64,000 nt of DNA, from contig CBDCJH010000002.1 of assembly GCA_965217775.1 (NCBI GenBank), positions 3,744,001 to 3,808,000 of the forward strand, in the 5' to 3' direction. The DNA comes from Acidobacteriota bacterium (GTDB lineage: Bacteria; Acidobacteriota; UBA6911; RPQK01; JAJDTT01). Numbering within the stretch: position 1 is the stretch's first letter; every line of letters begins with the position of its first letter. Positions 9,501 to 50,893 of this stretch are shown here, piece by piece. The position numbers and the translations under genes are program-made. The notes beneath the pieces were generated by a model. It searched no databases. It saw only the letters and a program-made list of their open reading frames with translations, and was not told the origin of the DNA.

Positions 9501-9568
9501 GTGAACACGGCCTGTCGAGCCTCTGCTGGGGTCTCTTCAACACCAGCGAGTTTCTCTACCTGAATTGA
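6533..9568 (+). CDS. Planctomycete cytochrome c + DUF1549/DUF1553 (PSD1) protein with LamG-like insert
   Basis: CLGCH and CARCHDHKYDP heme motifs, YGERWGRHWLDVVRFAE, PTHPELLDWLA, RRLEGEAIRDAML, FNTSEFLYLN. Confidence 0.9.
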   Translation: MKRNRTSVVFLSIAGLALVTQTRSEVGPSDLESRATELIAAECLGCHNPELATSGLNLTRRESALRGGDHGPVLVPSHPEASLLWSKVSSGEMPPGSPLSAPDREVFRDWIAAGAPWDHPIGSKSPAKRSDSNWWSFQPLQESQPPSAETAPEHWQTSPIDRFVHARMEEAGLEPNPPADPRTLIRRASYDLIGLPPDFEEVSAFLDDPSPAAYEKLIDRLLASPRYGERWGRHWLDVVRFAESEGFERDTLRENAWPYRDYVIESFNRDRSYLDFAREQIAGDVLAPVTRDGLVATGFLVSGPSDTVGFMSSVPVQREMVRQDQMEEMIGTVSQTFLGLTVNCARCHDHKYDPIPQREYYRMKAAFDGVWQGDRDLLTLDEQRARRQRVQPLEGRIAELEDRLAAFEVPARRRLLSQKAGPKTSAVAPSPFGQWTFDLDSRDSAGSLHTEMSEKVVLAEGRLRAAAGTKLTESVARTVPLARELREKTLEAWIRVNRLPEKQVGVFRIHNTKAFLGAVLDGIMFSGGDAKEWRNISSSSFRTAEGNGTPEAAEENRLVHIAICYAADHSIRLYRDGKPYGKAYTPDLRIEEGRLQTYLAGEGKVAFNVSEDLELEEARLYDMALTGEQVEASYLTGVLNVRREELDEVMTPAERSSALELRAELGRLRDRREVIPDPQKIYAAAVRQPGATYLLERGDPNAKQEKVSAGGLSCVPTLSPEFGLEVDAPEAKRRMRLAEWMANPRNPIFARTMVNRVWHYLFGRGLVENPNDLGFNGGPPTHPELLDWLAGEFVRGGWSVKKLHKRIMMSQTYRQSSDWRKTAAANDAGNRLLWRYSPRRLEGEAIRDAMLLVSGQINWEMGGASFRPFQEEEKFNAFEMYTPVDSDEPAHNRRTVYRMNVASAASPLLDSFDCPNPNVKTPKRVVTTTALQALSLMNNAFVLRQARAFADRIEREVESDRERHVRRAFEIALGRTPGREEMAWSEDLVGEHGLSSLCWGLFNTSEFLYLN

Positions 9569-9579
9569 CGGAGTGCCCT

Positions 9580-11016
9580 ATGCTCATCCCATCAGCGGTC
9601 CAACGCCGATTTTCCCCGCTCTCCCGCCGCCGGTTGCTCTTCGATGCCGGAGCGGGATTCGGCTGGGTTGCCCTCTCTTGGTTGACCCAACGGGAAGCGT
9701 TGGCTGGGGCGGCTGTGCGGGGGGCCGACCCAACTTCCAGAACGGGTCAGGTGCCGCACTTCGCGCCCAGAGCCAAGCGAGTGATCCAGATATTCGCGGT
9801 CGGCGGCATGAGCCACGTCGACACCCTGGATTACAAACCGGAACTCTCCAGGCGAAACGGCACGCCGTTCAATATGACGACCTTTTTTGGCCAGGCGGGC
9901 CACCTCTACGGGAGTCCGTTCGAGTTCCGCCGGAACCGTGAGAGTGGACTGTGGGTGAGCAACCTGCTGCCGCATTTGCGCGGTTGTGCCGACAAACTCG
10001 CGCTGATTCAGTCGATGGTCTCCAACAGCGCCAACCACATGCCCGCCGTGGCTCAGATGAACACCGGATTCGCGCTGAGCGGCTTCCCCAGCATGGGTGC
10101 CTGGATCAGCTACGGGCTGGGCACCGAGAGCGAGGACCTGCCGGCGTTCGTCGTCCTGCCCGACCCCGCCGACCACCCTTGGGGAAGCGGCCTGCAATGG
10201 GGTGCTTCATTCCTGCCCGCTTCTCATCAGGGGACGCCGTTTCGGACGTCCGGCGACGCCTTGGCTGACCTGACCACGCCCGAGTCCGTCCGTCCCGCAC
10301 AGCGGAGTGCGAGCCTGGAGTGGCTGGCGCGAATGAACCGGATCTACCAGCGGGAACATCCGGGCGACAGTTCGTTGCAGGCGCGCATCAGCTCCTATGA
10401 GCTGGCGGCGCGGATGCAGTTGAGCGTCCCCGAGATTGCCGATATCGAGCGCGAAAGCGAGAGTACTCGCCGCCTCTACGGCCTCGAGTCAAAAGAAACC
10501 GAAGCGCTCGGCCGCCGCTGTCTGCTGGCGCGCCGCTTGCTGGAGCGAGGAGTCCGATTCGTTCAGGTGTATCACGGCGGCACCAAGAAGACTTGGGACG
10601 CCCACTCCAGACTGGAGAAACACCACACCAAGATGGCGCTGGAATACGATCGTCCGGTGGCCGGCCTGCTCCAGGACCTGGATTCGCGCGGCATGCTGGA
10701 GGATACCCTGGTATTGGGGGTGACCGAGTTCGGCCGGACGCCCGTCGCCCAGGGAGGCAGCCTGGGACGCGACCATCACCCCGAATGCTTCACCTGCTGG
10801 CTGGCCGGGGCCGGTCTCAAGCGGGGTTTCATCTACGGAGCCTCAGACGAACTGGGCTACAAGCCGGCGGAGAACCCGGTCACGATCTACGACTACCACG
10901 CCACGGTCCTCCACCTGCTGGGGATCGACCACAAACGCCTTACCTATTACCACAACGGCATCGAACGCCGCCTGACCGACGTCCACGGGCGAGCCGTCAC
11001 CGAATTGTTGGCGTAG
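9580..11016 (+). CDS. DUF1501 family protein (Tat-exported)
   Basis: SRRRLL Tat motif, PRAKRVI, GGMSHVDTLDYKP, LLERGVRFVQ, EFGRTP, GRDHHP; usual partner of DUF1553. Confidence 0.9.
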   Translation: MLIPSAVQRRFSPLSRRRLLFDAGAGFGWVALSWLTQREALAGAAVRGADPTSRTGQVPHFAPRAKRVIQIFAVGGMSHVDTLDYKPELSRRNGTPFNMTTFFGQAGHLYGSPFEFRRNRESGLWVSNLLPHLRGCADKLALIQSMVSNSANHMPAVAQMNTGFALSGFPSMGAWISYGLGTESEDLPAFVVLPDPADHPWGSGLQWGASFLPASHQGTPFRTSGDALADLTTPESVRPAQRSASLEWLARMNRIYQREHPGDSSLQARISSYELAARMQLSVPEIADIERESESTRRLYGLESKETEALGRRCLLARRLLERGVRFVQVYHGGTKKTWDAHSRLEKHHTKMALEYDRPVAGLLQDLDSRGMLEDTLVLGVTEFGRTPVAQGGSLGRDHHPECFTCWLAGAGLKRGFIYGASDELGYKPAENPVTIYDYHATVLHLLGIDHKRLTYYHNGIERRLTDVHGRAVTELLA

Positions 11017-11043
11017 TGGGGAGCGGCGATTTCCAGTCGCCGA
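11017..11043. repeat. REP-like palindrome (family B)
   Basis: GGAGCGGCGATTTCCAGTCGCCG immediately after the stop codon; same core at about 38221. Confidence 0.5.
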
Positions 11044-11049
11044 ATTCCG

Positions 11050-11608
11050 GAGTTACAAAGAAGCTTTGTGCGCGCTTTTATGCGGAGCGGCTGGGTCGCC
11101 CGAGTCTACGGCCCGGACGGTACTTTCGGCTGCTGCTGGTAGGGTACTTCGAGGGGCTGAACTCGGAGCGGGCCATCGCCTGTCGGGTGTCGGATTCGGC
11201 GAGCGTGCGAGCCTTTCTGGAATACGACCCGGAGGAGGCGCCGCCGAGTCATTCGACCTTGTCGCGGACGCGACGGCGGATCGACGTGGAGACGCACGGA
11301 GAGGTGTTCACCTGGGTGCTGAAGCAGTCGGCGGAAGCGGGACTGGTGAAGGGGAAGACGATCGGGATCGATGCGGCGATGCGGAGCATCGTGCGCCGGG
11401 ACACGGGCAAAGACTATGAGACGTTCGTGAGGGGATTGGCGGAGGCGTCGGGGGTGAAGACGCCGACTCGGGAGGAACTGATTCGGAGCTATCCGTCGGA
11501 AACGGATCGGGGCCGGCGGAATTGGAAGGGGAACAACAAAAAGTACCAAGCGCCAGCGTTCGAAAAGAACATAAACCCGAGAAATCCGGATCTTGCCACG
11601 GACTGCTA
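11050..11608 (+). pseudogene. IS5/IS1182-like transposase remnant with one terminal inverted repeat
   Basis: GRPSLRPGRYFRLLLVGYFEGLNSER...PPSHSTLSRTRRR...GIDA-AMRSIVRRDTG; 5'-truncated with internal deletions; ends TTGCCACGGACTG-CTA. Confidence 0.8.
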
Positions 11609-11697
11609 AGCTAACACCTTGCTTGGGGGTCGATTCCCGACTTCGGGAGGCACGGCGCTGACAGGCCCAATGAGTATCTACCAGATCCCGGGAGCGC

Positions 11698-12003
11698 TCA
11701 TCCTGGGGTATGCAGGCCTCTGCCGGCATCCAGGGTCGGCAATCGGGCGATCGCCGGGCCGCTTTTCCGCGCCGCAAGCCGCAATTCGTAGAGCTTCTGA
11801 AGGTTGAGCCAGAACTCCCCCGAGGTGCCGAAGAAGCGCCCCAGACGCAATGCCGTATCGCCGGTGATCGAGCGTCGGCCGTTGAGTATCTCGGTAATGC
11901 GGTTAACCGGCACCTCGATGCGTCGCGCAAGCTCCGTAGCGCTCATGCCGAGCGCATCGAGATCCTCGCGCAACGTCTCGCCCGGATGGATGGGGTCGCG
12001 CAT
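11698..12003 (-). CDS. higA: HigA-family antitoxin (HTH)
   Basis: PIHPGETLREDL..MSATELAR..VPVNRITEILNGRRSITGDTALRLGRFFGTSGEFWLNLQ; GAGGAGG RBS. Confidence 0.92.
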   Translation of the reverse strand: MRDPIHPGETLREDLDALGMSATELARRIEVPVNRITEILNGRRSITGDTALRLGRFFGTSGEFWLNLQKLYELRLAARKSGPAIARLPTLDAGRGLHTPG

Positions 12004-12019
12004 GACTTGCCTCCTCAAA

Positions 12020-12300
12020 TTAATGGTAGTCCACGATTTCCACTTCGGTCGGGCCCGGACTTCCGTCCGGCCACTTGAAGCAGATCCGCCATTGGTCGTT
12101 GATGCGGATGCTCCACTGCCCCTTGCGCCGGCCCTTGAGTGCCTCCAGACGGTTGCCGGGCCTCGCCAGATCGCCCAGGCTCATGGCCGCGTCAAGCTGG
12201 TCGAGCTTGCGCGAGGCGGTCCGGGCGAATCCGGAAAATGACGCGATCCGGCGACCCTCGTATACGCTTCGGTTTTCCTGTCCGAGAAACCGACGATCAC
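12020..12300 (-). pseudogene. higB: HigB (RelE/ParE) toxin with a frameshift near the 5' end
   Basis: Body PGNRLEALKG.RKGQWSIRINDQWRICFKW..VEIVDYH; the family-like start GTG-IVGFSDRKTEA at 12300 is out of frame with the body by 1 nt. Confidence 0.75.
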
Positions 12301-12354
12301 AACGCATTCCGTTCCCGGAGCAACCGCATCAGCTCCACACTTGCGAAAACATCC

Positions 12355-12375
12355 GCATTACGTCAAGCATAACGC
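12355..12375 (-). promoter_or_regulatory. Putative higBA operator overlapping a -35 box (TTGACG)
   Basis: Imperfect palindrome GCATTACG-TCAAG-CATAACGC upstream of higB. Confidence 0.4.
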
Positions 12376-12662
12376 ATTTTGCTTCGCTGCCCGGTTTCAC
12401 GTCGTGGAGAGGGCGAGTCTGGCCGTGAGCGGGACGGCGGTCGGCACTCTGGAGGGGGCTGCCATCGCCCTTTCTTTTCACCCGACCGGAGGAGCATGGC
12501 ACGATGCAGGCGGCACTCGCACCGCGCGGCGACGCGCGCACCTTTCTCACCCATTTCGTCGGCAGCGGCCTGGACGACGACCGCTACGTCATTACCAAGT
12601 GCGGAGTTTTACAGTCACACCCGACGCAGGGCCGGGACTCCAACCAGCGCCAGACGGTCTCG

Positions 12663-12770
12663 CTCCACCTGCTGGGGATCGACCACAAACGCCTCACCTA
12701 CTACCACAACGGCATCGAACGCCGCCTGACCGACATCCACGGGCGCGCCGTCACCGAATTGCTGGCGTAG
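12663..12770 (+). repeat. Direct repeat of the last 108 bp of the DUF1501 gene (10909-11016)
   Basis: 5 mismatches in 108 bp: 4 synonymous, 1 V>I; includes the stop codon. Confidence 0.95.
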
Positions 12771-12867
12771 TAGAGGCGACCCTTGTGGTCGCCCTTTTCC
12801 TGCCGGCAACCATTTTCAGGAGATTGCGACGAAAGAGGGCACCCAAACACACAAGGGGTGCCCCTAC
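12770..12867. repeat. GTAG-family REP doublet (REPIN, family A)
   Basis: GTAGAGGCGACCCTTGTGGTCGCCC ... GGGCACCC..ACAAGGGGTGCCCCTAC; homologous to 46905 and 51057. Confidence 0.8.
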
Positions 12868-12922
12868 GGGTTCGATTCGATGCCCGAGATGGTGTGCTCC
12901 ACGGGCGTCAAGCAGTTGACGT

Positions 12923-13549
12923 TCAGGGAGTTGATCCGTGGCCATCACGTGGGTGTCCAACTTGCAACAATCCGCGCAGAAAGTCTCTGAGCGGAGCGAT
13001 GGACTGATCGTGGTCAGCGAACCTCAGATGGCCGACATACTCATCCCGGGTCTGTCGAATCATCTCAGGGAGAATTGGATCTCCTCCCGGGAAACCACCT
13101 ATTTTGACGCAAAGGACGTAGTAGCAGAGAGCCCGAGCAGTACGGCCATTCCCGTTGACGAAGGGATGTATGTGGTTCAACTTCCACAGGCATACGGCCG
13201 ACAGGGAGACTGGGTCAGCGGAAGACCACACGCCGTTGACTCCTCTGACGAATTCACCCATGAGACGAGGAACATGAACCGACGGGGGAGGAGTGTGAGG
13301 TCCCACACGTACTTCAGATGCGCGGTATGTACCGGCTGGATGGTCAAGACAAGCGATGGCGTGGAAATTCAGGGCTTTGACGATCGTCTCGGTGAGCTTC
13401 TCGTCGAGGTCCCGGCCGAGCATACGCTCAGCTGAAAGAGTGGCACGGATTATCGAGGTGAGAAAGTCGTATTGCCGGTTGAGATTGTCACGGGCGAGAT
13501 TCTTGTATACGTCGTGGTTTTCGCCGCCACACAGATCTCATAGGATCAT
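12923..13549 (-). pseudogene. Fic-domain protein with an in-frame TGA at codon 4 (open remainder 12923-13423)
   Basis: HPFVNGNGRTAR Fic motif; reading frame extends upstream as M-I-L-*-DLCGGENHDVYKNLARDNLNRQYDFLTSII. Confidence 0.75.
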
Positions 13550-13556
13550 CCACGGA

Positions 13557-13751
13557 TTATCCCATGTCTCTCAGATGCTGCTCGATCTCCTCCCGAGTGA
13601 AGTGCATCTCCTTTGGCTGGTTGCCGTAGACAAAGGAAACCCGTTGTTGAAAGCGTTCTTCCGGAGTTCTTGGCCTTCGGGCCGCTTCCTCTAGTTGACG
13701 GGTGAACTCCGGGTCAGTCTCTCTCAGTTCTGCGAGCAACGCTCTCTCCAT
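13557..13751 (-). CDS. Small 64-aa protein upstream of Fic, probable antitoxin/partner
   Basis: GGAGG RBS; MERALLAELRE...TPEERFQQRVSFVYGN...TREEIEQHL; stop lies 7 bp before the Fic ATG. Confidence 0.6.
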   Translation of the reverse strand: MERALLAELRETDPEFTRQLEEAARRPRTPEERFQQRVSFVYGNQPKEMHFTREEIEQHLRDMG

Positions 13752-13887
13752 GGCTGAACCTCCGCGGTTGCTTTGATCAAACTGTTGCGAAATTGTCAAG
13801 CGCGTGCGCACAAGAGTAGACGTAATACGATGACCTGGATTCGGGTTGGTCCGTACCCGCCCGTTCCCTTTATCAGTTTGCCTTGTA

Positions 13888-14047
13888 CCAGCCCGTGGCA
13901 AAAGTCGTCACGGCATTCGACCGTCCCTGCATCCCGGCGGACTGCGTTGCTATCGGCTCACATACTCCCGGTATGCTCCCTCATCGCGCCTTGTCCGGCG
14001 GGCGCAGGAACGGTCTCGGTGCTCGCGCGACTTTCACCACGGACTGG
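13888..14047 (+). mobile_element. MITE family 1, copy 1 (160 bp, TA flanks)
   Basis: TIRs CAGCCCGTGGCAAAAGTC / GACTTTCACCACGGACTG; four near-identical copies in the window. Confidence 0.9.
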
Positions 14048-14106
14048 TACGACCGGCACAAACCTTCTGTGCGCTTACGATTCAGCGACCCACTGAGGAA
14101 TTCGGG

Positions 14107-21015: not shown

Positions 21016-23313
21016 ATGCAGATGGAATCAGGCAACAATACTTGCATATCAGCCCGTGGCAAAAGTCGTCACGGCATTCGACCGTCCCTGCATCCCGGCG
21101 GACTGCGTTGCGACTCGGTCACATACTCCCGGTATGCTCCCTCATCGCGCCTTGTCCGGCGGGCGCAGGAACGGTCTCGGTGCTCGCGGGACTTTCACCA
21201 CGGACTGATATGCTGGACCCTCACGAAACGCAAGGAGTGCGCCCGGCCCCTATTTATTGCACTAATTCTGCTTTTCCTGTCCCCCTCAATCGTTCATTCA
21301 AAAGGAAAGATGTCTGAACCAAAATATAAAAACAATCTTAAAGTGGAATTCGTACGGGTTCCCATGCGGGACGGCGTCGAGCTGGCGGCCAAGATCGTGC
21401 GGCCCGACGCCGAAGGCCGGTTTCCCGGAGTCATGATGTACTACCCGTATCGTTTTCTGAACGACTCGGAGGACCTGGGCTTCCCCTGGCCCGTCGGGCC
21501 CACCCCCTACCTGGCGGCGAGGGGCTATGCGGTCGTGCAGTACGAAGTCCGCGGGACCGGAAATTCGGGGGGCTGGACGAAAGACATCTACTCCGCCGAC
21601 GAGAGGCGGGACGGCTACGAGATGGTGGAGTGGATCGCCGACCAACCCTGGTGCAACGGCAACGTGGGCATGATGGGGATCTCCTATGGAGGCGTGGTGC
21701 AGTGGCACGTCGCGGTGCAGGCGCCTCCCAGCCTGAAGGCCATCATCGTCCGCTCCGCCAACGACGACGTCTACACCGAGTGGACCTACCCCGGCGGCGT
21801 CCTGCGGCCGTACATGTTCGACACCTTCTCTCCCCTGATGACGGCCTCCAACCTGCTGCCGCCCAATCCGGACATCACCGGCCCCAAGTGGAGCGAAATC
21901 TGGCAAGAGCGACTGCAGAAGAGCGAGCCCTGGGGCATCGGATACATTTCCAACCAGCAGCACGGTCCCTACTGGCAGGACCGTTCGTTGTCGAAGGATT
22001 TCAACCGGGTCAAATGCGCCGTCTACGTCATCGGGGGCTGGTCCGACTGCTACCCCACTGCGCTGCTGAGAGCCTACTCGAACTTGAAGGTTCCCAAACG
22101 GGCGCTGATCGGTCCCTGGGGCCACTGGTGGCCGGAAGTGGAACGGGCGGTCCCGGGACCCAGGATCCAGGGCGGTATCGAGTACGTGAAGTGGTTCGAC
22201 TACTGGCTCAAGGGGATCGACAACGGCGTCATGGACGAACCGCCGGTGACCATCTTCGTCAAGAAGTACAAGAAACCGTCGGCTCGGATGTATGTGGAGG
22301 AACCCGGGGAGTGGCGGTCGGAGCGGGAGTGGCCCATCGCCCGCACCCGGCCGACGCCGCTCTACTTCCACTCCGGCGGCCGGCTGAGCCGCGAGGAAGA
22401 CGCTGCCGAAGGGCGCGACGAGTACGAATACAACCCGATCGCGGGCCTCACATCGGGGATGCACTGGGGCGGCGGTGTTCTCCCCTGGGGAATGCCCATC
22501 GATCAGCGGCTGGACGAAGCCTTCTCCGTGACCTATACGACGCCCCCGCTGGAAGCGGAACTGGAAGTGACGGGGACCCCCACCGCGGTGCTGAACATCT
22601 CCTCGAGCGCCAAGGTCGCCTACTTTCGAGTGAAGCTCATCGACGTGGCCCCCGACGGGACGTCGAAGCTGGTCCGTTACGGGGGACTCAATGCGACTCA
22701 CCGCAACTCCCACTTCGAACCCGAACCCCTGGTGCCGGAACGGACCCACGAAATCAAGGTCGAGTTGAAGACCATTTCCTACGTCTACGCTCCGGGACAC
22801 CGGATCCGGGTGGCCGTCACCAGCGCCGACATCCAGAACGCGTGGCCGACGGCCCAGAGCGCCACCAACACCATCCACCGAGGAGGGAGTTTTCCGTCCC
22901 GGATCATCCTCCCAGTCGTTCCGTCGCAGAGCCCGAGCCTCCCGCCGCCGGATTTGAAGATCCTGCCCCCTGCCGATCCCGACATCCTCGCCAAGCCCAC
23001 GGAATACTCCATCACCCACGACCTGGTGAACGAGACCGCAACGGTCCGGTTGTCCGTGGACGATCGGGAGTACGGCCGGCTCATCGAGTCCAGTTTCACG
23101 GTGTCGTCGAAAGAGCCCGCCAACGCCGTGCTCAAGGCCCGCGCCATCAGGTCGATGAACCGCCCCGGCATGGAGGTTCGGGTGGAGGCGAACGAGGTCA
23201 CCACGAGCGACCCGGAGGCCTTTCACCATGTGGGCCAGGTCGAGGTCCGGGTCAACGGCAAGCGTCACACCAACAAGAGCTGGTCCGTGACCGTGCCCAG
23301 GAAACTGAACTGA
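21016..23313 (+). CDS. CocE/NonD family hydrolase (MITE in frame in the N-terminal leader; start uncertain)
   Basis: VPMRDGVELAA, RGTGNSGG, QPWCNGNVGMMGISYGG nucleophile motif, IGPWGH, GHRIRV. Confidence 0.88.
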   Translation: MQMESGNNTCISARGKSRHGIRPSLHPGGLRCDSVTYSRYAPSSRLVRRAQERSRCSRDFHHGLICWTLTKRKECARPLFIALILLFLSPSIVHSKGKMSEPKYKNNLKVEFVRVPMRDGVELAAKIVRPDAEGRFPGVMMYYPYRFLNDSEDLGFPWPVGPTPYLAARGYAVVQYEVRGTGNSGGWTKDIYSADERRDGYEMVEWIADQPWCNGNVGMMGISYGGVVQWHVAVQAPPSLKAIIVRSANDDVYTEWTYPGGVLRPYMFDTFSPLMTASNLLPPNPDITGPKWSEIWQERLQKSEPWGIGYISNQQHGPYWQDRSLSKDFNRVKCAVYVIGGWSDCYPTALLRAYSNLKVPKRALIGPWGHWWPEVERAVPGPRIQGGIEYVKWFDYWLKGIDNGVMDEPPVTIFVKKYKKPSARMYVEEPGEWRSEREWPIARTRPTPLYFHSGGRLSREEDAAEGRDEYEYNPIAGLTSGMHWGGGVLPWGMPIDQRLDEAFSVTYTTPPLEAELEVTGTPTAVLNISSSAKVAYFRVKLIDVAPDGTSKLVRYGGLNATHRNSHFEPEPLVPERTHEIKVELKTISYVYAPGHRIRVAVTSADIQNAWPTAQSATNTIHRGGSFPSRIILPVVPSQSPSLPPPDLKILPPADPDILAKPTEYSITHDLVNETATVRLSVDDREYGRLIESSFTVSSKEPANAVLKARAIRSMNRPGMEVRVEANEVTTSDPEAFHHVGQVEVRVNGKRHTNKSWSVTVPRKLN
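21049..21208 (+). mobile_element. MITE family 1, copy 2 (160 bp)
   Basis: Same TIRs and body as 13888-14047; TA flanks. Confidence 0.9.
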
Positions 23314-25729: not shown

Positions 25730-25745
25730 TCTTCCAACCCCCTTA

Positions 25746-25906
25746 CCAGCCCGTGGCAAAAGTCATCACGGCATTCGACCGTCCCTGCATCCCGGCGGAC
25801 GGCGTTGCGATTCGGGCACATACTCCCGGGTATGCACCCGAATCGCGCCTTGTCCGGCGGGCGCAGGAACGGTCTCGGTGCTCGCGCGACTTTCACCACG
25901 GACTGC
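25746..25906 (+). mobile_element. MITE family 1, copy 3 (161 bp) between convergent genes
   Basis: Same TIRs; one extra G relative to the other copies. Confidence 0.9.
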
Positions 25907-25918
25907 TAACGGGCACGA

Positions 25919-45100: not shown

Positions 45101-46908
45101 TCCGATTGACTCGCCACTGGACCCGAGGACTTCTCGTCATGTGCCTGCAATCCACACTCATCTCGCCGTCTTTGGCCGAGAGACCAGCCTGGAAGGACAT
45201 CCTGTCTCCGCCGGAACACAGCCCTGCCACGTTGATCGACGTCCGGGTGCCCATGCGGGACGGGGTTTCGTTGTCGGCGGACGTCTATCTCCCCGGGAAG
45301 GAAGGCCGGTGGCCGGTCATCCTGGAGCGGACACCGTACGGCAACAGCTCCGACTGGTACATCAACCGGGCCCTGTATTTCGCCCGGCGCGGTTACGTGT
45401 ACGTGCTCCAGGACTGCCGCGGCCGTTTCGATTCGGATGGAGAGTGGTCCGGGTGGATCGTGGAAATCGAAGACGGGCGGGACACGCTGGACTGGTGCGG
45501 AACCCAGTCCTGGTCCAACGGCAACGTGGGCATGATGGGGATGTCCCACATGGGACTGACCCAGTGGAAGGCAGCCCAGACCGGTTCACCCTACCTGAAG
45601 GCCATCGCCCCCCAGATGGGCCCGGCCGACGAATACCTGTACGGGATGAACTACACCGGCGGAGCCTTCCTGCTGCAGATCGGCATCCCCTGGTCCATCG
45701 GCGTCCGCGGGCGGACTCAACAGACGCGGCAACCGTATGACTGGGACAAGCTGTTTCGGCACCTCCCCATTCTGACGGCCGACGTGGAGGCCACGGGAAA
45801 ACCGATCGGGTTCTACCGCGACTGGATCCAGCACCCCAGCTACGACGATTTCTGGAAGAAGGCCAGCAACTACGGGCACTTCCGCAAGATGGACGTCCCC
45901 ATCCTGCAGGTGAGCGGCTGGCTCGACCTGCACGCCAAGTCGCTGTTCGCCAACTACGAGGCCATTCAGCGAGAGGGCACAGAGCGCGCCAAGCGCCTGC
46001 AGAAAGTGGTGGTCGGCCCCTGGGTCCACACCGACCGGCCCAAGCAGGGCTACGGGGTGTTGGATTTCGGAGTCGACTCCATCATCGACCTCTATGCGCT
46101 CTACCTGCGCTGGATGGACCGGTGGCTGAAGGGGATCGAGAACGGGGTCGAGAACGAGCCCCCTCTGAAACTGTTCATGATGGGGAAGAACCGGTGGAGA
46201 ACCGCCGACAAATGGCCACTCCCCGAGACCCAATGGACTCCCTTCTACTTGCGCAGCGGCGGGCGGGCCAATTCTCTCTTCGGCGACGGCACCCTCGCTA
46301 CGGGAATGCCCGGCGGCGGCGAGCCGGCCGACCGCTACACCTACAACCCGGAAGACCCCGTCCCGACCCTGGGGATGGATCCCAACGGCGAGGTGGCGCC
46401 CCTGGACCACCGGCCCGTGGAGTACCGGGACGACGTCCTGGTCTACAGCACCGAAGCCCTCGAGGAAGAGCTGGAGGTGACGGGCCCGATCCAGGCCACC
46501 ATCTACGCCAGCAGCTCCGCTCCGGACACGGACTGGACCGTCAAGCTGCTGGACGTCTACCCGGACGGCAAGGCGGTCAACCTCTGGGACGGTATCCTCC
46601 GAGCCCGTTACCGGGATCCCGCGGCAATCCGGGCCGGAGTCCCCTCACCCGGCCAGTTCGAAAACCCTGAGTTACTGGAGCCTGGGAAGATCTACAGCTT
46701 CTTCATCGAGGTGGGCGTCGTCAGCAACGTCTTTCTCAAGGGTCACAAGATCCGCGTCGAAGTCTCCAGCAGCAACTTCCCGCGTTTCGACCGCAACCTG
46801 AACAACGGAGGAAAGCTCGGCGTCGACACCGAGATCGTCCTAGCCAATCAGACCATCTACCACGACGCCGACCACCCGTCCCACATCCTCCTGCCGGTCA
46901 TTCCGTAG
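45097..46908 (+). CDS. CocE/NonD family hydrolase
   Basis: ATGA coupling; VPMRDGVSLSADVY, ERTPYG, WSNGNVGMMGMSHMG, GHKIRVEVSSSNFPRFDRN. Confidence 0.9.
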   Translation: MIRLTRHWTRGLLVMCLQSTLISPSLAERPAWKDILSPPEHSPATLIDVRVPMRDGVSLSADVYLPGKEGRWPVILERTPYGNSSDWYINRALYFARRGYVYVLQDCRGRFDSDGEWSGWIVEIEDGRDTLDWCGTQSWSNGNVGMMGMSHMGLTQWKAAQTGSPYLKAIAPQMGPADEYLYGMNYTGGAFLLQIGIPWSIGVRGRTQQTRQPYDWDKLFRHLPILTADVEATGKPIGFYRDWIQHPSYDDFWKKASNYGHFRKMDVPILQVSGWLDLHAKSLFANYEAIQREGTERAKRLQKVVVGPWVHTDRPKQGYGVLDFGVDSIIDLYALYLRWMDRWLKGIENGVENEPPLKLFMMGKNRWRTADKWPLPETQWTPFYLRSGGRANSLFGDGTLATGMPGGGEPADRYTYNPEDPVPTLGMDPNGEVAPLDHRPVEYRDDVLVYSTEALEEELEVTGPIQATIYASSSAPDTDWTVKLLDVYPDGKAVNLWDGILRARYRDPAAIRAGVPSPGQFENPELLEPGKIYSFFIEVGVVSNVFLKGHKIRVEVSSSNFPRFDRNLNNGGKLGVDTEIVLANQTIYHDADHPSHILLPVIP

Positions 46909-46989
46909 GGGCACCCCTTGTGGGTGCCCTCTTTCGTTCTGCCATCAGTCGCCGACACGGGGGAGGGCGACCACAAGGGTCGCCCCTAC
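46905..46989. repeat. GTAG-family REP doublet (REPIN, family A)
   Basis: GTAGGGGCACCCCTTGTGGGTGCCC ... GGGCGACCACAAGGGTCGCCCCTAC; 85 bp, inverse copy at 51057-51141. Confidence 0.85.
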
Positions 46990-47022
46990 GATTCGTCCCT
47001 CCAATACCGGTATATTCTGATC

Positions 47023-48864
47023 ATGTTGATACCTACGATCATCCTCCTCGTAGCATCCCTCACCCCCGCCCTTGCGGACACCCCCAACATCCTGTGGATC
47101 AGCTCCGAAGACAACGGGCCCCACCTCGGCGTCTACGGCGACTCCTACGCCGACACTCCGAACCTGGACGCATTGGGCGCCCGCGGCATGATCTACCGCA
47201 ACGCGTGGTCCACGGCCCCCGTCTGCGCGCCGGCTCGCACCACCATCATCAGCGGCATGTACCCGCCGTCCACGGGTTCGCAGCACATGCGCTCGTCGAC
47301 CCGGCTCCCCCGGTTGATGAAGATGTTCCCCCAGTACCTGCGCGAGACCGGCTACTACGTCACCAACAACTCCAAGGAGGACTACAACCTCATCAAACCC
47401 GGCAAGGTCTGGGACGAATCCAGCCCGCAGGCGCACTGGCGCAAGCGCGCGCCCGGCCAGCCCTTCTTCTCGGTCTTCAATCTCACAGTCACCCACGAGT
47501 CCCAGATCCGGAAGCGCCCGCATGCAGCCGTCCACGACCCCGCTACGGTGCGGGTGCCCGCCTACCACCCCGACACCCCGGAGACCCGGCAGGACTGGGC
47601 CCAATACCACGACAAGATGACGGAGATGGACGGTCTGGCCGGCAAGGTGCTGGCCCAGTTGAAAGCAGACGGCCTGGAAGAGGACACCATCGTCTTCTAC
47701 TGGGCGGACCACGGGGCCGGCATGCCCCGCAGCAAGCGCTGGACCTACAACTCCGGCCTGCACGTGCCGTTGATCCTCTACATCCCGGAGAAGTTCCGGC
47801 ACCTGCGCCCGGCCGAGTACGCCGCGGGCGGTGAGAGCGACCGTCTCGTCGGTTTCGTCGACTTCGCGGCGACGGTTCTCAGCCTCGCCGGCATCCAACC
47901 TCCGGGCCATTTCCAAGGCCATGCCTTCGCGGGCAAATACGAAGCTCCTCCGCAGCCGTACCTTTACGGCTTTCGCGGACGGATGGACGAGCGCTACGAC
48001 ATGGTCCGCAGCGTCCGCGACCAGCGCTACATCTACATCCGCAACTTCATGCCGCACCGGATCTACGGCCAGTTCGTCGAGTACATGTTCCGGACGCCGA
48101 CGACCGCCGTGTGGCACAAGATGTACACCGAGGGAAAGCTGAGCCCTCCTCGCACCCACTTCTGGGAGACCAAACCGGCCGAGGAACTCTACGACTTGGC
48201 CGAGGACCCCGATGAGACGAGAAATCTCGCCGACAGCCCCGAGCATACGGCGGTCCTGGAGTGTCTGCGGGCCGCCCGCCGGGAGTGGTCGCTGTCGATC
48301 CGCGATCTCGGATTCCTGCCGGAAAGCGCCATCCACTCACGATCCGGCCATGATGCGCCCCATTCCATGGGAGCCGACCCGGCGAGGTACCCCCTGGAGC
48401 GCATCATGCGAATGTCGGAATTGGCGTCCTCCATGCAGGAAGGCGTGGAGCCGGAACTTCGCGCCGGGTTCGCAGATCCCGACAGCGCCGTGCGTTACTG
48501 GGCGGCCCTGGGCGCCTTGATGAGAGGGGAGGCGGGTGTCGGGGCACTGGCCGCGCCGCTACGGGAGGCGCTCTCGGATGACGATCCGGCGGTCCGAGTT
48601 GCCGCCGGCGAAGCGCTCGGGCGGTATGGCAACGATCCGGACACCGAACGTGCCCTGGCCGTGCTGGTGGAACTGGCCGATGCGGAAAAGCACGGTCTCC
48701 ACGTCGCCATGATGGCGCTCAATGCTCTCGACTACCTGGAGGCCCGCGCCGAGCCGGCGCTCAACCGGATCCTCGCCCTGCCCCAAGAGCTGCCGGGAAT
48801 GGACCGCCGGTTCCGCATTTACCTCCCGAACCTCATCGCCAAGATCCGCGCGGACTTCGAGTGA
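47023..48864 (+). CDS. Cys-type sulfatase with C-terminal HEAT repeats
   Basis: PNILWISSED, CAPAR (CxPxR), ADHG, ELYDL..DP.E..NLA; AVRYWAA and AVRVAAGEAL repeats. Confidence 0.9.
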   Translation: MLIPTIILLVASLTPALADTPNILWISSEDNGPHLGVYGDSYADTPNLDALGARGMIYRNAWSTAPVCAPARTTIISGMYPPSTGSQHMRSSTRLPRLMKMFPQYLRETGYYVTNNSKEDYNLIKPGKVWDESSPQAHWRKRAPGQPFFSVFNLTVTHESQIRKRPHAAVHDPATVRVPAYHPDTPETRQDWAQYHDKMTEMDGLAGKVLAQLKADGLEEDTIVFYWADHGAGMPRSKRWTYNSGLHVPLILYIPEKFRHLRPAEYAAGGESDRLVGFVDFAATVLSLAGIQPPGHFQGHAFAGKYEAPPQPYLYGFRGRMDERYDMVRSVRDQRYIYIRNFMPHRIYGQFVEYMFRTPTTAVWHKMYTEGKLSPPRTHFWETKPAEELYDLAEDPDETRNLADSPEHTAVLECLRAARREWSLSIRDLGFLPESAIHSRSGHDAPHSMGADPARYPLERIMRMSELASSMQEGVEPELRAGFADPDSAVRYWAALGALMRGEAGVGALAAPLREALSDDDPAVRVAAGEALGRYGNDPDTERALAVLVELADAEKHGLHVAMMALNALDYLEARAEPALNRILALPQELPGMDRRFRIYLPNLIAKIRADFE

Positions 48865-48930
48865 ACGGAATCAGCGGTCCGACCGGCCTATTTCGATCTG
48901 TCCACCCTTGAGTTCTTCCGTCGTTCAAGA

Positions 48931-49326
48931 TTATGCCAAGTCCAAAAGCGGAATGTTCATGGCGCGGGCGACATCTGTCATTCGGCGATCGTAGCTTGCA
49001 AGTGTGACTGATTGTCCTTGCTTGCGAAGGTAGTCGCAGGAAGCAAGATGAAGGGTATCGAGGGTGCGTAAGAATACAGACACGGGAAAGGCATCCAGAG
49101 CCCGTGCCAGTACCGGTGGAGTAAGCTCCAGCAACGCGACTTGTCCGATGAGTCGAAGGGCCGTCTCACCGTGGGATTCGGCGAGTCTGCGCGCGTGTAG
49201 CTGGGTCCAAATCTCGTACTCCATCAAACGACTGGACACCAGCGTCTCGCTCCAAAGCGAGGCGGGTGGGCAACGATCTTCCGCCAGTAGCTGGGCAAGA
49301 GCGACGGAGGTATCGAGGTAGATCAC
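48931..49326 (-). CDS. vapC: PIN-domain toxin (VapC-like)
   Basis: IYLDTS, LMEYEI, LRTLDTLHLAS, SYDRRM acidic tetrad. Confidence 0.85.
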   Translation of the reverse strand: MIYLDTSVALAQLLAEDRCPPASLWSETLVSSRLMEYEIWTQLHARRLAESHGETALRLIGQVALLELTPPVLARALDAFPVSVFLRTLDTLHLASCDYLRKQGQSVTLASYDRRMTDVARAMNIPLLDLA

Positions 49327-49616
49327 CGTTCGCTCCGGTGTTCTTCCAATTCGGCGAGAATATCCCGGAGCGGCGCCACCGGTTGAGGTGTCGGCGGCTC
49401 ACCGTCGGATGGTAGGACCGGCGGCGTCAACCAGCCCTTACGTACCGCCTCTGCGAGCAGCGCATCGGCTAGAATCGGACTCCTCGTCGGTTTCCGCGGA
49501 CCGATTTCGGCTACGACTCGGTCGCGGTCTGTCACCAGAACGGTTTCCCCTGATGCGGCGATCCTTATGTACTCGCTTAAACGGCTGTTGAGCACCTTTA
49601 TTCCTACTGATCTCAT
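49323..49616 (-). CDS. Phd/YefM-family antitoxin
   Basis: MRSVGIKVLNSRLSEYIRIAASGETVLVTDRDRVVAEI; GTGA overlap with the PIN gene. Confidence 0.85.
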   Translation of the reverse strand: MRSVGIKVLNSRLSEYIRIAASGETVLVTDRDRVVAEIGPRKPTRSPILADALLAEAVRKGWLTPPVLPSDGEPPTPQPVAPLRDILAELEEHRSER

Positions 49617-49688
49617 ACGGATTAAAGTAGCAACTCGTAGCTACCAGTTCAAACTGCGCCAAAGCGACCAATGCGGTTATGGGCCCAA

Positions 49689-49744
49689 GGTTCCGCATCT
49701 ACTTGCCGAACCTCATCGCCAAGATCCGGTCGGATTTCGAGTAA
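49689..49744 (+). repeat. Direct repeat of the last 56 bp of the sulfatase gene (48809-48864)
   Basis: Encodes FRIYLPNLIAKIRSDFE* versus FRIYLPNLIAKIRADFE*; 7 mismatches, only one non-synonymous. Confidence 0.92.
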
Positions 49745-49774
49745 GCGGCCCGGCAGCCCGGCGGGAGACGGGAA

Positions 49775-50893
49775 TCAGGCGGAACTCTTTTCTCGTTGCC
49801 AGAGCCTGTAAAGACCCAGAGTCATCAACGGGACGATGTAGACGAACAGGAATCCCCAACTCACCGCTCCGTAGCCCTTGGCGACCAAGTGGACCAACCC
49901 GAATGTCGACAGCGCCAGTCCCAGCAAGAGAAGAGCCAGGGCCACCAGGGGCCTGACCCGTCGAGGAAGGTCTCTCCCCCGAGCCTGTAGAGCCGACTGC
50001 AAGCGTTCGTTGACGGAATGGATCATTCCCGTCCCGGTCTCGACCAGAGTTCCCAGCAGGACCACCTGAAAGACGATGAGGAGCAGGGGCAACTGGGCTT
50101 CGCGCAAGATGTAGACCGCCGGGATCTCCTGGGAAAGCACCTCCGGATAGTGGCCGACGATGGCGAGGTAGAAGAGCAAGCCGGGGAAAATTCCGATCAC
50201 GCCGCCGAGGAGACCTGCTCCGACGGCCTGCCGCCGGCTCTTGATGTGATGCGTGGCGAATAGAACCGCAGGAATCGCTCCGAGGTTGTAGAAACCGTAC
50301 TTGAACGCCCCCAGGACCCAGAGGGAGGAATCGATCCCGGTGGAGAGGCTGTCTCGAATCTCGGCACCGAACCGGAGGAAGCACAGAACGAAGAAGACCA
50401 GATAGACCCCGTAGAGGAGCAGCGACCAGCCGGAGAGAAACTTCTCGATCAGGCCCGTTCCCTTGAAGGTGAGAAATCCGATGGAAGCCAGCATGATGGC
50501 GACCCCGAGCAGGTAGGGCAGGCCGAAGTTGTCGCGCAGCAGGACCCCAGCGGTGGAGCCGATCACCGCCAAGACGATCAGCAGCAGGATCAGATAGAGA
50601 ACTTCGAAGCTGACCCAGAATCGGCCCAACAGGTGGAGGAAGAAGGTTCGATAGTCATGCGCCCGGTAGATCCTCGCGAATTCGAAGGAGACGGCAAGGA
50701 CCACCGACCACATCACGGTACTGATGAAAAGCATTCCCAACAGACCGCCGACGGGTCCGTAGTTGAGGAAGTACTCCACCATTTCCCGTCCCGTACCGTA
50801 TCCCCCGGCGATGATCACCGACTGGAAGACGATTCCGGGGAGCACGTAGGCCTTGAATACGGACGTGAGTCGATTGCGTTGCATGACGGTCAT
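49775..50893 (-). CDS. YkvI-like membrane transporter
   Basis: PGIVFQSVIIAGGYGTGREMVEYF, about 10 TM segments, LVAKGYG. Confidence 0.8.
   Translation of the reverse strand: MTVMQRNRLTSVFKAYVLPGIVFQSVIIAGGYGTGREMVEYFLNYGPVGGLLGMLFISTVMWSVVLAVSFEFARIYRAHDYRTFFLHLLGRFWVSFEVLYLILLLIVLAVIGSTAGVLLRDNFGLPYLLGVAIMLASIGFLTFKGTGLIEKFLSGWSLLLYGVYLVFFVLCFLRFGAEIRDSLSTGIDSSLWVLGAFKYGFYNLGAIPAVLFATHHIKSRRQAVGAGLLGGVIGIFPGLLFYLAIVGHYPEVLSQEIPAVYILREAQLPLLLIVFQVVLLGTLVETGTGMIHSVNERLQSALQARGRDLPRRVRPLVALALLLLGLALSTFGLVHLVAKGYGAVSWGFLFVYIVPLMTLGLYRLWQREKSSA

Follow-up and report, generated by a model that had tools for sequence, protein, structure and literature searches.

A vapBC operon between two copies of a sulfatase gene end in an Acidobacteriota genome: a probable old insertion with gene-end duplication

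A 64,000-nt stretch of the 6.43-Mb genome of an Acidobacteriota bacterium (the whole stretch is referred to as the window, the genome as G000) contains a small toxin–antitoxin (TA) operon of the VapBC kind that is bracketed by the 3' end of a sulfatase gene and a second copy of the same end, with six of the seven differences between the two copies being silent. How did this operon come to stand there, and does the seemingly recoded copy betray DNA imported from a relative, as an earlier note on this stretch had proposed? Comparison with eight other species of the same genus (G001–G008) favours, at a probability of roughly 70 %, an old vapBC insertion of recombination-type origin that duplicated the gene end and has been vertically inherited since.

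The duplicated gene end

The gene hosting the duplicated end (46918–48864, plus strand) encodes a sulfatase of 648 amino acids (Pfam Sulfatase, E 6e-37) with a C-terminal HEAT-repeat region (HEAT_2, E 3.2e-10). The repeat search across the window paired 48794–48868 with 49674–49748 (family D1; 75 nt, 81 % identity, spacing 880). Copy 1 (48809–48868, plus strand) represents the working 3' end, i.e., the last 18 codons, the stop codon and 4 nt beyond it, where the repeat has its right edge. Copy 2 (49689–49748, plus strand) is a non-functional relic of this end and runs into the native spacer. In the core of the repeat (48809–48864 versus 49689–49744) 7 of 56 positions are mismatched, 9 of the 15 positions to its left are identical between the copies, and similarity at the protein level extends back to an ATG at 49679 (MDRRF... 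versus MGPRF...). Both copies translate, in the frame of the sulfatase, to FRIYLPNLIAKIR(A/S)DFE* and differ in a single residue; the stop codon is TGA in the working end and TAA in the relic. Repeat search and translation thus confirm the direct repeat described in the earlier note, including its one amino acid change and the exchanged stop codon.

In the whole genome, the relic is the sole counterpart of the gene end apart from the gene itself (blastn-short E 8.5e-10; tblastn E 3e-6), the next-best matches spanning no more than 20 nt. Therefore, the repeat is regarded as real and not as a member of a repeat family. The relic is followed by a spacer of 31 nt and the stop codon of a convergent gene for a membrane protein (49775–50911, minus strand; 378 amino acids, no Pfam family), which is the right neighbour in all nine species (87–94 % amino acid identity). 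An 86-nt element composed of a pair of hairpins flanks the block of sulfatase, TA and membrane-protein genes in inverted orientation (46904–46989 and 51057–51142, 97 % complementary); the same element is located at 12771–12869, behind the relic of a second case in the window (see below), and behind the orthologous gene in G001.

The vapBC cargo

Only two open reading frames (ORFs) are present between the repeats, with no integrase gene among them. The vapC gene (48931–49326, minus strand) encodes a PIN toxin of 131 amino acids (Pfam PF01850, E 3.9e-9; 37.6 bits versus a cut-off of 23.6, positions 1–119 of 120 of the profile covered), in which Asp5, Asp90, Asp112 and a Glu near residue 36–38 were seen by eye as candidates for the four conserved acidic positions of a PIN active site. 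It is found at the same locus in six relatives with 79–96 % amino acid identity. The vapB gene (49323–49616, minus strand) encodes an antitoxin of 97 amino acids with a Phd/YefM-type N-terminal part: its match to Pfam PhdYeFM is weak (E 9.3e-4; 19.4 bits, under the cut-off of 29.8), and residues 1–40 match VapB46 in the Protein Data Bank (6jqy, E 6.7e-5). The GTG start codon of vapC overlaps the stop codon of vapB by 4 nt (GTGA), and both genes are kept as a unit in five relatives as well as in cassettes of other phyla. Copy 1 is separated from vapC by 66 nt, and 62–66 nt of spare DNA lie on each side of the operon.

Since about 45 nt 5' of the vapB start are conserved with a paralogous cassette and with cassettes of other phyla, while DNA farther out is not, this stretch likely comprises promoter and operator. 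The putative elements (49617–49665, minus strand) are TTGAAC, two GTNGCTAC half-sites and TACTT, with the ATG 7–8 nt further on, such that vapB may have a leaderless start. A scan with the sigma-70 consensus yielded no match at this putative promoter and one hit at 48959–48930 on the minus strand, in the 3' end of vapC; a terminator search at the islet found none. Judged from sequence, the cargo is a chromosomal type II TA operon of the VapBC kind, and the pair would act as a VapBC module under the control of its own autoregulated promoter. The two ORFs, with their Pfam PIN and Phd/YefM-type matches, bear out the claim that essentially only an antisense antitoxin–toxin pair and its promoter lie between the copies.

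The TA system itself is an ordinary VapBC. It resembles, e.g., VapBC46 of M. tuberculosis in its small antitoxin gene followed by a PIN toxin gene, the 4-nt overlap and an operator-like repeat before the start, with the antitoxin N-terminus aligning to VapB46. In contrast, a phmmer search with VapC against solved structures retrieved nothing at E 0.01.

The locus in related species

Orthologues of the sulfatase are encoded in all eight other species (85–92 % amino acid identity) and have identical neighbours. The unpublished genome G016 underlies none of the conclusions. TA genes are present at this locus in seven of the eight: the operon is whole in G007, G003, G006, G002 and G004, G008 possesses vapC and only residues 60–97 of the antitoxin, and G001 only the antitoxin. 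No TA genes but merely an 89-nt spacer are found in G005. Identities of the TA proteins (79–98 %) track those of the flanking genes (85–95 %). A tree of three flanking proteins places G005 with G008, G001 and G004 (support 96/99), the other five species forming a second group; in a sulfatase tree with three outgroups, the base of which is poorly resolved, G005 is not sister to the rest. Since G005 nests inside TA-bearing lineages, its lack of TA genes is attributed to loss. As judged from this comparison of nine loci, the islet goes back to an insertion no later than the common ancestor of the sampled species and was then vertically inherited.

The relic is readable in G007, where all changes are silent. 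In G003 it has lost one base upstream (frameshift) as well as its stop codon and carries 2 synonymous and 4 non-synonymous changes; in G006 2 synonymous and 5 non-synonymous changes are found, and the G002 relic has suffered two deletions. No relic is discernible in G004, G001 and G008, for which weak tblastn matches were dropped because their positions fall inside the membrane-protein gene. The ancestral gene end was approximated by the majority consensus of nine working ends and four alignable relics, which is not a model-based reconstruction and draws on related species as non-independent samples. The consensus of the working ends, that of the relics and the joint consensus are one and the same sequence. 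From this sequence, the working end of G000 deviates by ATC>ATT and CTG>CTC (both synonymous) and by TCG>GCG (Ser to Ala), and its relic by CTG>TTG, CGC>CGG (common to G007), GAC>GAT and TGA>TAA, all four of which are silent. Since both consensuses are identical, the seven differences postdate the duplication, three having arisen in the working copy and four in the relic. Across all relic lineages, nine silent and nine non-silent changes were counted, from which it follows that the relic is not maintained as coding sequence. The apparent recoding is, on this consensus, ordinary divergence after an old duplication. Its reading as a sign of import was not borne out, given an old and vertically inherited islet with identical consensuses of working ends and relics.

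Logan contigs of three studies (runs X6, X10 and X11) span 48820–49330 and 49305–49876 or 49305–49742 with 0–5 differing letters. They bridge copy 1 and vapC as well as vapB, relic and membrane-protein gene; X6 may be the source sample. In contigs of about 84 % similarity, 48864 is followed by 55 other letters and then by 49799, which corresponds to the empty form of a relative, and another contig represents an antitoxin-only form; rare excised forms cannot be revealed by contigs. In runs X1–X5, fractions of at most 0.29 of the sampled words were present (X1, 0.29; X2–X5, 0.05–0.18, three of the latter four being labelled sponge metagenome), and no habitat is drawn from them.

Gene-end islets across the genome

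The whole genome was scanned by means of a home-made, rough gene caller and an ungapped seed-and-extend repeat search, yielding 2042 direct-repeat pairs (at least 36 nt, 120–10000 nt apart). In 70 of these, one copy ends no more than 15 nt from a called stop codon and the other lies downstream, comprising 26 ends of neighbouring paralogues, 4 relic-type pairs >450 nt and 40 relic-type pairs ≤450 nt (T00–T39). Repeat ends cluster at the stop codon (32 pairs in the bin from 0 to +9 versus 4–9 in each of the next five 10-nt bins), and the control direction, which consists mostly of paralogue pairs, also peaks there. The right edge of the repeat lies 0–8 nt past the stop codon in at least 12 islets other than that of vapBC. 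Repeat lengths vary from 47 to 413 nt across islets.

Pfam analysis of 144 and then 68 cargo ORFs assigned TA families to ten pairs: T06 (Phd), T17 (HigBA), T18 (the vapBC locus), T21 (VapB), T22 (PIN), T23 (Gp49 and HTH), T24 (RHH and GNAT), T25 (DUF2283, presumably linked to TA systems), T26 (DUF5615) and T29 (HicAB). Ten further pairs with nine cargos carry other defence-like or mobile families, i.e., T02 (Schlafen AlbA_2), T11 (AAA_21), T13 (tyrosine recombinases), T15 (UPF0236 transposase), T19 (AAA_14/DUF4143), T20 and T33/T34 (IS200-like Y1), T27 (two AAA_16 proteins) and T35 (Type ISP). Other families were found in eight pairs and no family in twelve, including T28. The latter was rejected as a gene-end islet, being a pair of a 165-nt multicopy element. 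This element of approximately 165 nt also flanks two genes in the window (21047–21210 and 25744–25908) and adjoins the relics of T23 and T25; well over 100 matches with 92–100 % identity are distributed over the nine genomes.

G000 is rich in TA genes (43 PIN, 12 ParE, 13 HigB-like and 5 HicA matches). The set of toxin-domain places used for comparison numbers 73 (44 PIN, 12 ParE, 12 HigB and 5 HicA), with the vapC locus added as it had been missed by the PIN search. Bracketing by a low-copy repeat within 6 kb was observed for 15 of the 73 toxin genes, compared to 26 of 600 random called genes (Fisher p 5.5e-6) and 60 of 600 called genes of up to 200 amino acids (Fisher p 0.016); four in five toxins have no such bracket. 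The association with TA genes is thus better than chance, and the recurrent route that the earlier note had suspected from two cases finds support as to its recurrence, with 40 relic-type pairs of which 10 have TA and 10 other defence or mobile cargo.

Several islets allow their insertion to be followed across the genus. In case of T29 (HicAB; target duplication of 178 nt), the single gene end of 178–182 nt in five relatives aligns to both copies of G000, and the relic is continuous with the native flank. This islet is present in G000, G007, G006 and G003, where the relics differ by 1–7 nt and the working ends by 4–17 nt; between G000 and G006, similarity amounts to 98.6 % for the flank, the relic and a portion of the cargo, and to 94.3 % for the gene. 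Since relic and flank are more alike than the gene, T29 was passed between species by recombination. T27 has a duplication of 156 nt (99 % similar) with the relic continuous with native downstream DNA. Its junction lies 27 nt before the native stop codon and inside a hairpin element, so that the gene acquired a new stop at the join and was shortened by 9 codons; in G001 the same cargo (87 % similar) is located at the same place without a duplication. The site of T23 is empty in all eight relatives, but both copies carry changes of their own, such that this case is not decisive. T13 (C2:3533186–3542470) is a 9.3-kb insert with a gene-end duplication of 277 nt (89 % similar) and three adjacent tyrosine-recombinase matches. 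Three more such trios exist elsewhere in the genome, and we take T13 to resemble 'recombinase in trio' elements.

A second vapBC operon of G000 (C2:6169558–6170298), which also occurs in G007, shares 80 % DNA identity over 741 nt and 80 % amino acid identity with that of the sulfatase locus. It is bracketed by two hairpin repeats, and behind it a 125-nt relic of the inner part of the upstream 414-amino-acid gene is found. A cassette search with one genome per species retrieved 181 relatives, the best 80 of which were kept and have 59–95 % amino acid identity; record titles of these 80 name Acidobacteriota, Binatia, Alpha- and Gammaproteobacteria, Nitrospira, Dehalococcoidia and others. Loci L123–L199 have VapC relatives of 59–78 % amino acid identity in metagenome-assembled genomes titled with many phyla and classes. 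The sequences point to a single cassette family spread widely by horizontal transfer. Two of the cassettes are bracketed locally, L128 by a duplication of 93 nt (a gene end and 45 nt beyond) and L157 by one of 87 nt (from 23 nt before to 63 nt after a stop codon). An alignment of nine cassette loci revealed only the promoter and the two ORFs as common parts and no conserved termini.

A second case in the window

The HigBA islet (T17) is situated behind a gene of 483 amino acids (9565–11016), the working 3' end of which (10909–11017, plus strand) recurs as a relic at 12663–12771 (plus strand; family D13, 109 nt, 95 %). The cargo (11698–12307, minus strand) consists of a HigA-type HTH antitoxin gene (11698–12018; HTH_3, E 1.3e-10) and a HigB toxin gene (12020–12307; HigB-like_toxin, E 2.2e-14). 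Beside it lies an insertion sequence (IS) fragment (approximately 11059–11486; DUF772, E 3e-5) that is multicopy in the genus. Seven relatives have this locus but lack the segment from approximately 11045 to 14106, and G007 gave no orthologous match. An ORF of 166 amino acids within this G000-specific segment (12923–13423, minus strand) contains the motif HPFVNGNGRTAR and is Fic-like by eye.

The working copy is followed by a hairpin spacer resembling that of G006, G003, G002, G005 and G008. Behind the relic stands another hairpin element, which occupies this position in G001. Since the spacers downstream of the two copies are of different native types, two haplotypes appear to stand side by side. 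The arrangement fits DNA that came in from a relative and was joined homologously at one end and illegitimately at the other. Thus, the proposed import of DNA from a relative fits this second case with its juxtaposed haplotypes, but fails for the vapBC locus, where the consensuses are identical.

Origin of the insertion

At the vapBC locus, the insertion brought a direct duplication of the final 56 to approximately 70 nt of the sulfatase gene, including 4 nt behind the stop codon, whereby the left copy stayed the working gene end and the right copy became a functionless relic. Initially, the copies were identical or nearly so, and the three later changes in the working copy occurred under purifying selection. 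One end may have been joined via homology or at a break in the gene end without a dedicated enzyme, and this join would have left a target duplication of variable length (insertion-duplication). Later, such an islet may be handed among related species by ordinary recombination in its flanks. Within this explanation, recombination-type insertion without a dedicated enzyme is favoured, since the lengths vary between 47 and 413 nt, no common core or ends are apparent and the same cargo occurs with and without duplication; taken by itself, this component has slightly less than an even chance of being correct. Integration at an att site with an integrase that was lost or acted in trans is the less probable component, but is kept alive by the right edges near the stop codon in at least 12 islets, the recombinases of T13 and copies that were identical at the start.

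A recombinase core shared by the junctions, as considered in the earlier note, was found neither at the left boundaries of 21 islets inspected by eye, which have no common motif, nor in an all-versus-all comparison of the 100-nt cargo ends of 26 islets. The latter retrieved only the hairpin GAGAAGGGGACAGTCAC, which was rejected as a specific site, since it recurs between genes throughout the genome (255 occurrences of GGGACAGTC in G000 versus 79 expected, 159 of the 255 being outside called genes). Copies of the hairpin (GAGAAGGGGACAGTCAC..TTCTC, e.g., C2:6169473–6169498 and 6170339–6170364) are often located at the ends of islet cargos. An IS, transposon or miniature inverted-repeat transposable element is likewise not indicated, with no conserved terminal repeats at the nine aligned loci and no target duplication of fixed length (47–413 nt). 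A footprint of illegitimate recombination, i.e., a working end of donor type that differed from the relic already at insertion, was not found at the vapBC locus.

The strongest competitor, although itself rather unlikely, is a remnant or satellite of a site-specific integrative element, in which the 56-nt block represents the att site in the sulfatase 3' end, the element brings a gene end along so that the gene stays intact, and either the integrase was lost (a CIME-like state) or the cassette is mobilised in trans by one of the tyrosine recombinases of the genome. Its anatomy would be that of e14, which has icd on one side and the C-terminal pseudogene icdC on the other, with mostly synonymous differences between the working 3' end and the displaced fragment, and excision by recombination of the icd copies (PMC13626634). 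However, the e14 prophage measures 15 kb and brings its own integrase, while the present islet comprises 0.8 kb and a TA operon only, and its copies were alike at the start. It would also agree with the definition of cis-mobilizable elements (CIMEs), which derive from integrative and conjugative elements (ICEs) as well as integrative and mobilizable elements (IMEs) and, at the 3' end of their target gene, still possess attL and attR after the integration genes are lost (PMC5704250). Unlike CIMEs, the islets have repeats of variable length without a common core, and no cognate ICE, IME or integrase is known for the site. The right edge close to the stop codon at the vapBC locus and in the further islets would suit such an element, as would T13 with its gene-end duplication and recombinases, and the genome harbours 24 Phage_integrase (PF00589) matches. 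The nearest of these is approximately 250 kb away from the islet, which agrees with the claim that the islet has no recombinase of its own; in all nine species the islet and its vicinity are free of integrase genes, and no integrase-bearing element resides at this gene end in the eight congeners or at three outgroup loci. The cargo is moreover the operon alone with 62–66 nt to spare on each side, which is very tidy for a deletion remnant. Boundaries without a common core at repeats of 47–413 nt, the T27 junction inside a coding region that cuts the gene by 9 codons, and the T27 cargo of G001 at the same place without duplication argue in the same direction.

Far less probable is a cassette that arrived from a diverged relative together with its own sulfatase end, by homology-facilitated illegitimate recombination or single crossover of a circle, in which case the synonymous differences would predate the insertion. 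Six of the seven mismatches being silent would be explained in this way, and third-codon mismatches dominate many islets (T01 1/1/7, T13 4/5/22, T20 0/2/8). The second case indeed juxtaposes spacers like those of G006, G003 and G002 and like that of G001. At the vapBC locus, however, the relic consensus equals the working-end consensus, the islet is common to both main branches of the genus, and the differences are specific to lineages: ATT, CTC and GCG are found only in working ends of the group of G000, G007 and G003, whereas TTG, GAT and TAA are restricted to the relic of G000.

Hardly credible is a relic that represents the last piece of a mostly deleted tandem sulfatase paralogue, or a chimera that the assembly made from two strains. 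An estimated assembly contamination of 7.5 % and the many sulfatase-like genes of the genome (85 first-look candidates) might be cited in favour, but the C-terminal sequence occurs in no other gene of the genome, which rules out the paralogue, the consensus of the relics matches the orthologous gene end exactly and not a diverged paralogue, the relic passes without a break into the native spacer that precedes the membrane-protein gene, and a chimera is excluded by the same relic structure in four other assemblies (G007, G003, G006 and G002), TA genes in seven and contigs bridging both junctions.

Several observations weigh against an old, recombination-type insertion with vertical inheritance. 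The fuzzy left edge (9 of 15 matches) renders the length of the duplication uncertain, and the poorly resolved base of the sulfatase tree leaves room, in strict terms, for an ancestrally empty G005 and a slightly later insertion. All five independent changes in the relics of G000 and G007 are silent (probability 0.0005–0.01 under three mutation models), which is unexplained; the locus was chosen for this very pattern, which weakens the figure. Clustering of right edges at stop codons is likewise unexplained under a recombination route, even if part of it may reflect the selection of pairs and other edges were seen (L128, +45; L157, +63; T27, −27). T13 shares the anatomy of the vapBC islet, yet has tyrosine recombinases aboard, and the copies of the second case stem from different haplotypes, unlike those of the main locus. 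Bracketing of cassettes across phyla provides no support: it was seen at 7 of 56 loci, several of these seven representing the same event, and at 17 of 336 shifted controls (p 0.06). For the vapBC locus itself, we infer the route of insertion.

Other features of the window

Two overlapping ORFs (52355–53308 and 52402–52575, both on the minus strand) look like a reverse transcriptase disrupted by a frameshift. RYVDDF is present in the shorter ORF; the longer one (317 amino acids) matched no Pfam family at E 0.01. The region 58700–63900 contains large internal duplications (units of 687–699 and 2250 nt) as well as two blocks in which a 72-nt period is repeated, with 17 copies in total; these probably belong to two paralogous repeat-protein genes.

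Relation to known systems and biological meaning

Insertion-duplication by single crossover and homology-facilitated illegitimate recombination take place during natural transformation and are known from laboratory crosses; the latter was reportedly described by de Vries and Wackernagel (2002) and Prudhomme et al. (2002). The gene-end islets resemble these processes in that the insert has no recombinase and the anchoring segment is duplicated over a variable length, and the two haplotypes of the second case fit as well. No paper linking these processes to TA islets was found; a literature search combining TA systems and homology-facilitated illegitimate recombination gave a simulation study only. 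Like e14, phage 21 is integrated in icd of E. coli. The pdif modules of Acinetobacter plasmids are small, often contain TA pairs and move without a recombinase of their own, but are bounded by XerC/D sites on plasmids, in contrast to the chromosomal gene-end copies described here. Minimal TA islets within gene-end duplications were not found described as a recurrent class, in agreement with the earlier note, which knew of no named system; subscription journals were outside the coverage of this literature search.

One may tentatively speculate, at odds well below even, that accessory cassettes (TA systems, defence genes, IS fragments) are repeatedly planted at gene 3' ends by a route for which they need not bring a recombinase, leaving duplications of variable length (50–400 nt) that preserve an intact host gene and the relics of which decay, while the islets spread among related species by recombination in their flanks. 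To our knowledge, the movement of chromosomal TA systems has long been unclear, most of them adjoining no obvious mobile element. If the proposed route is true, gene-end relics would be datable footprints of the arrival of chromosomal TA systems, and a fifth of the toxin genes of this genome would keep one. The vapBC locus teaches that a seemingly deliberate recoding may be explained by ordinary divergence after an old duplication. Such a footprint would be countable: with duplicated ends around TA or defence cargo and the matching unoccupied sites of relatives at hand, it may become possible to trace how islets arise, spread and decay.

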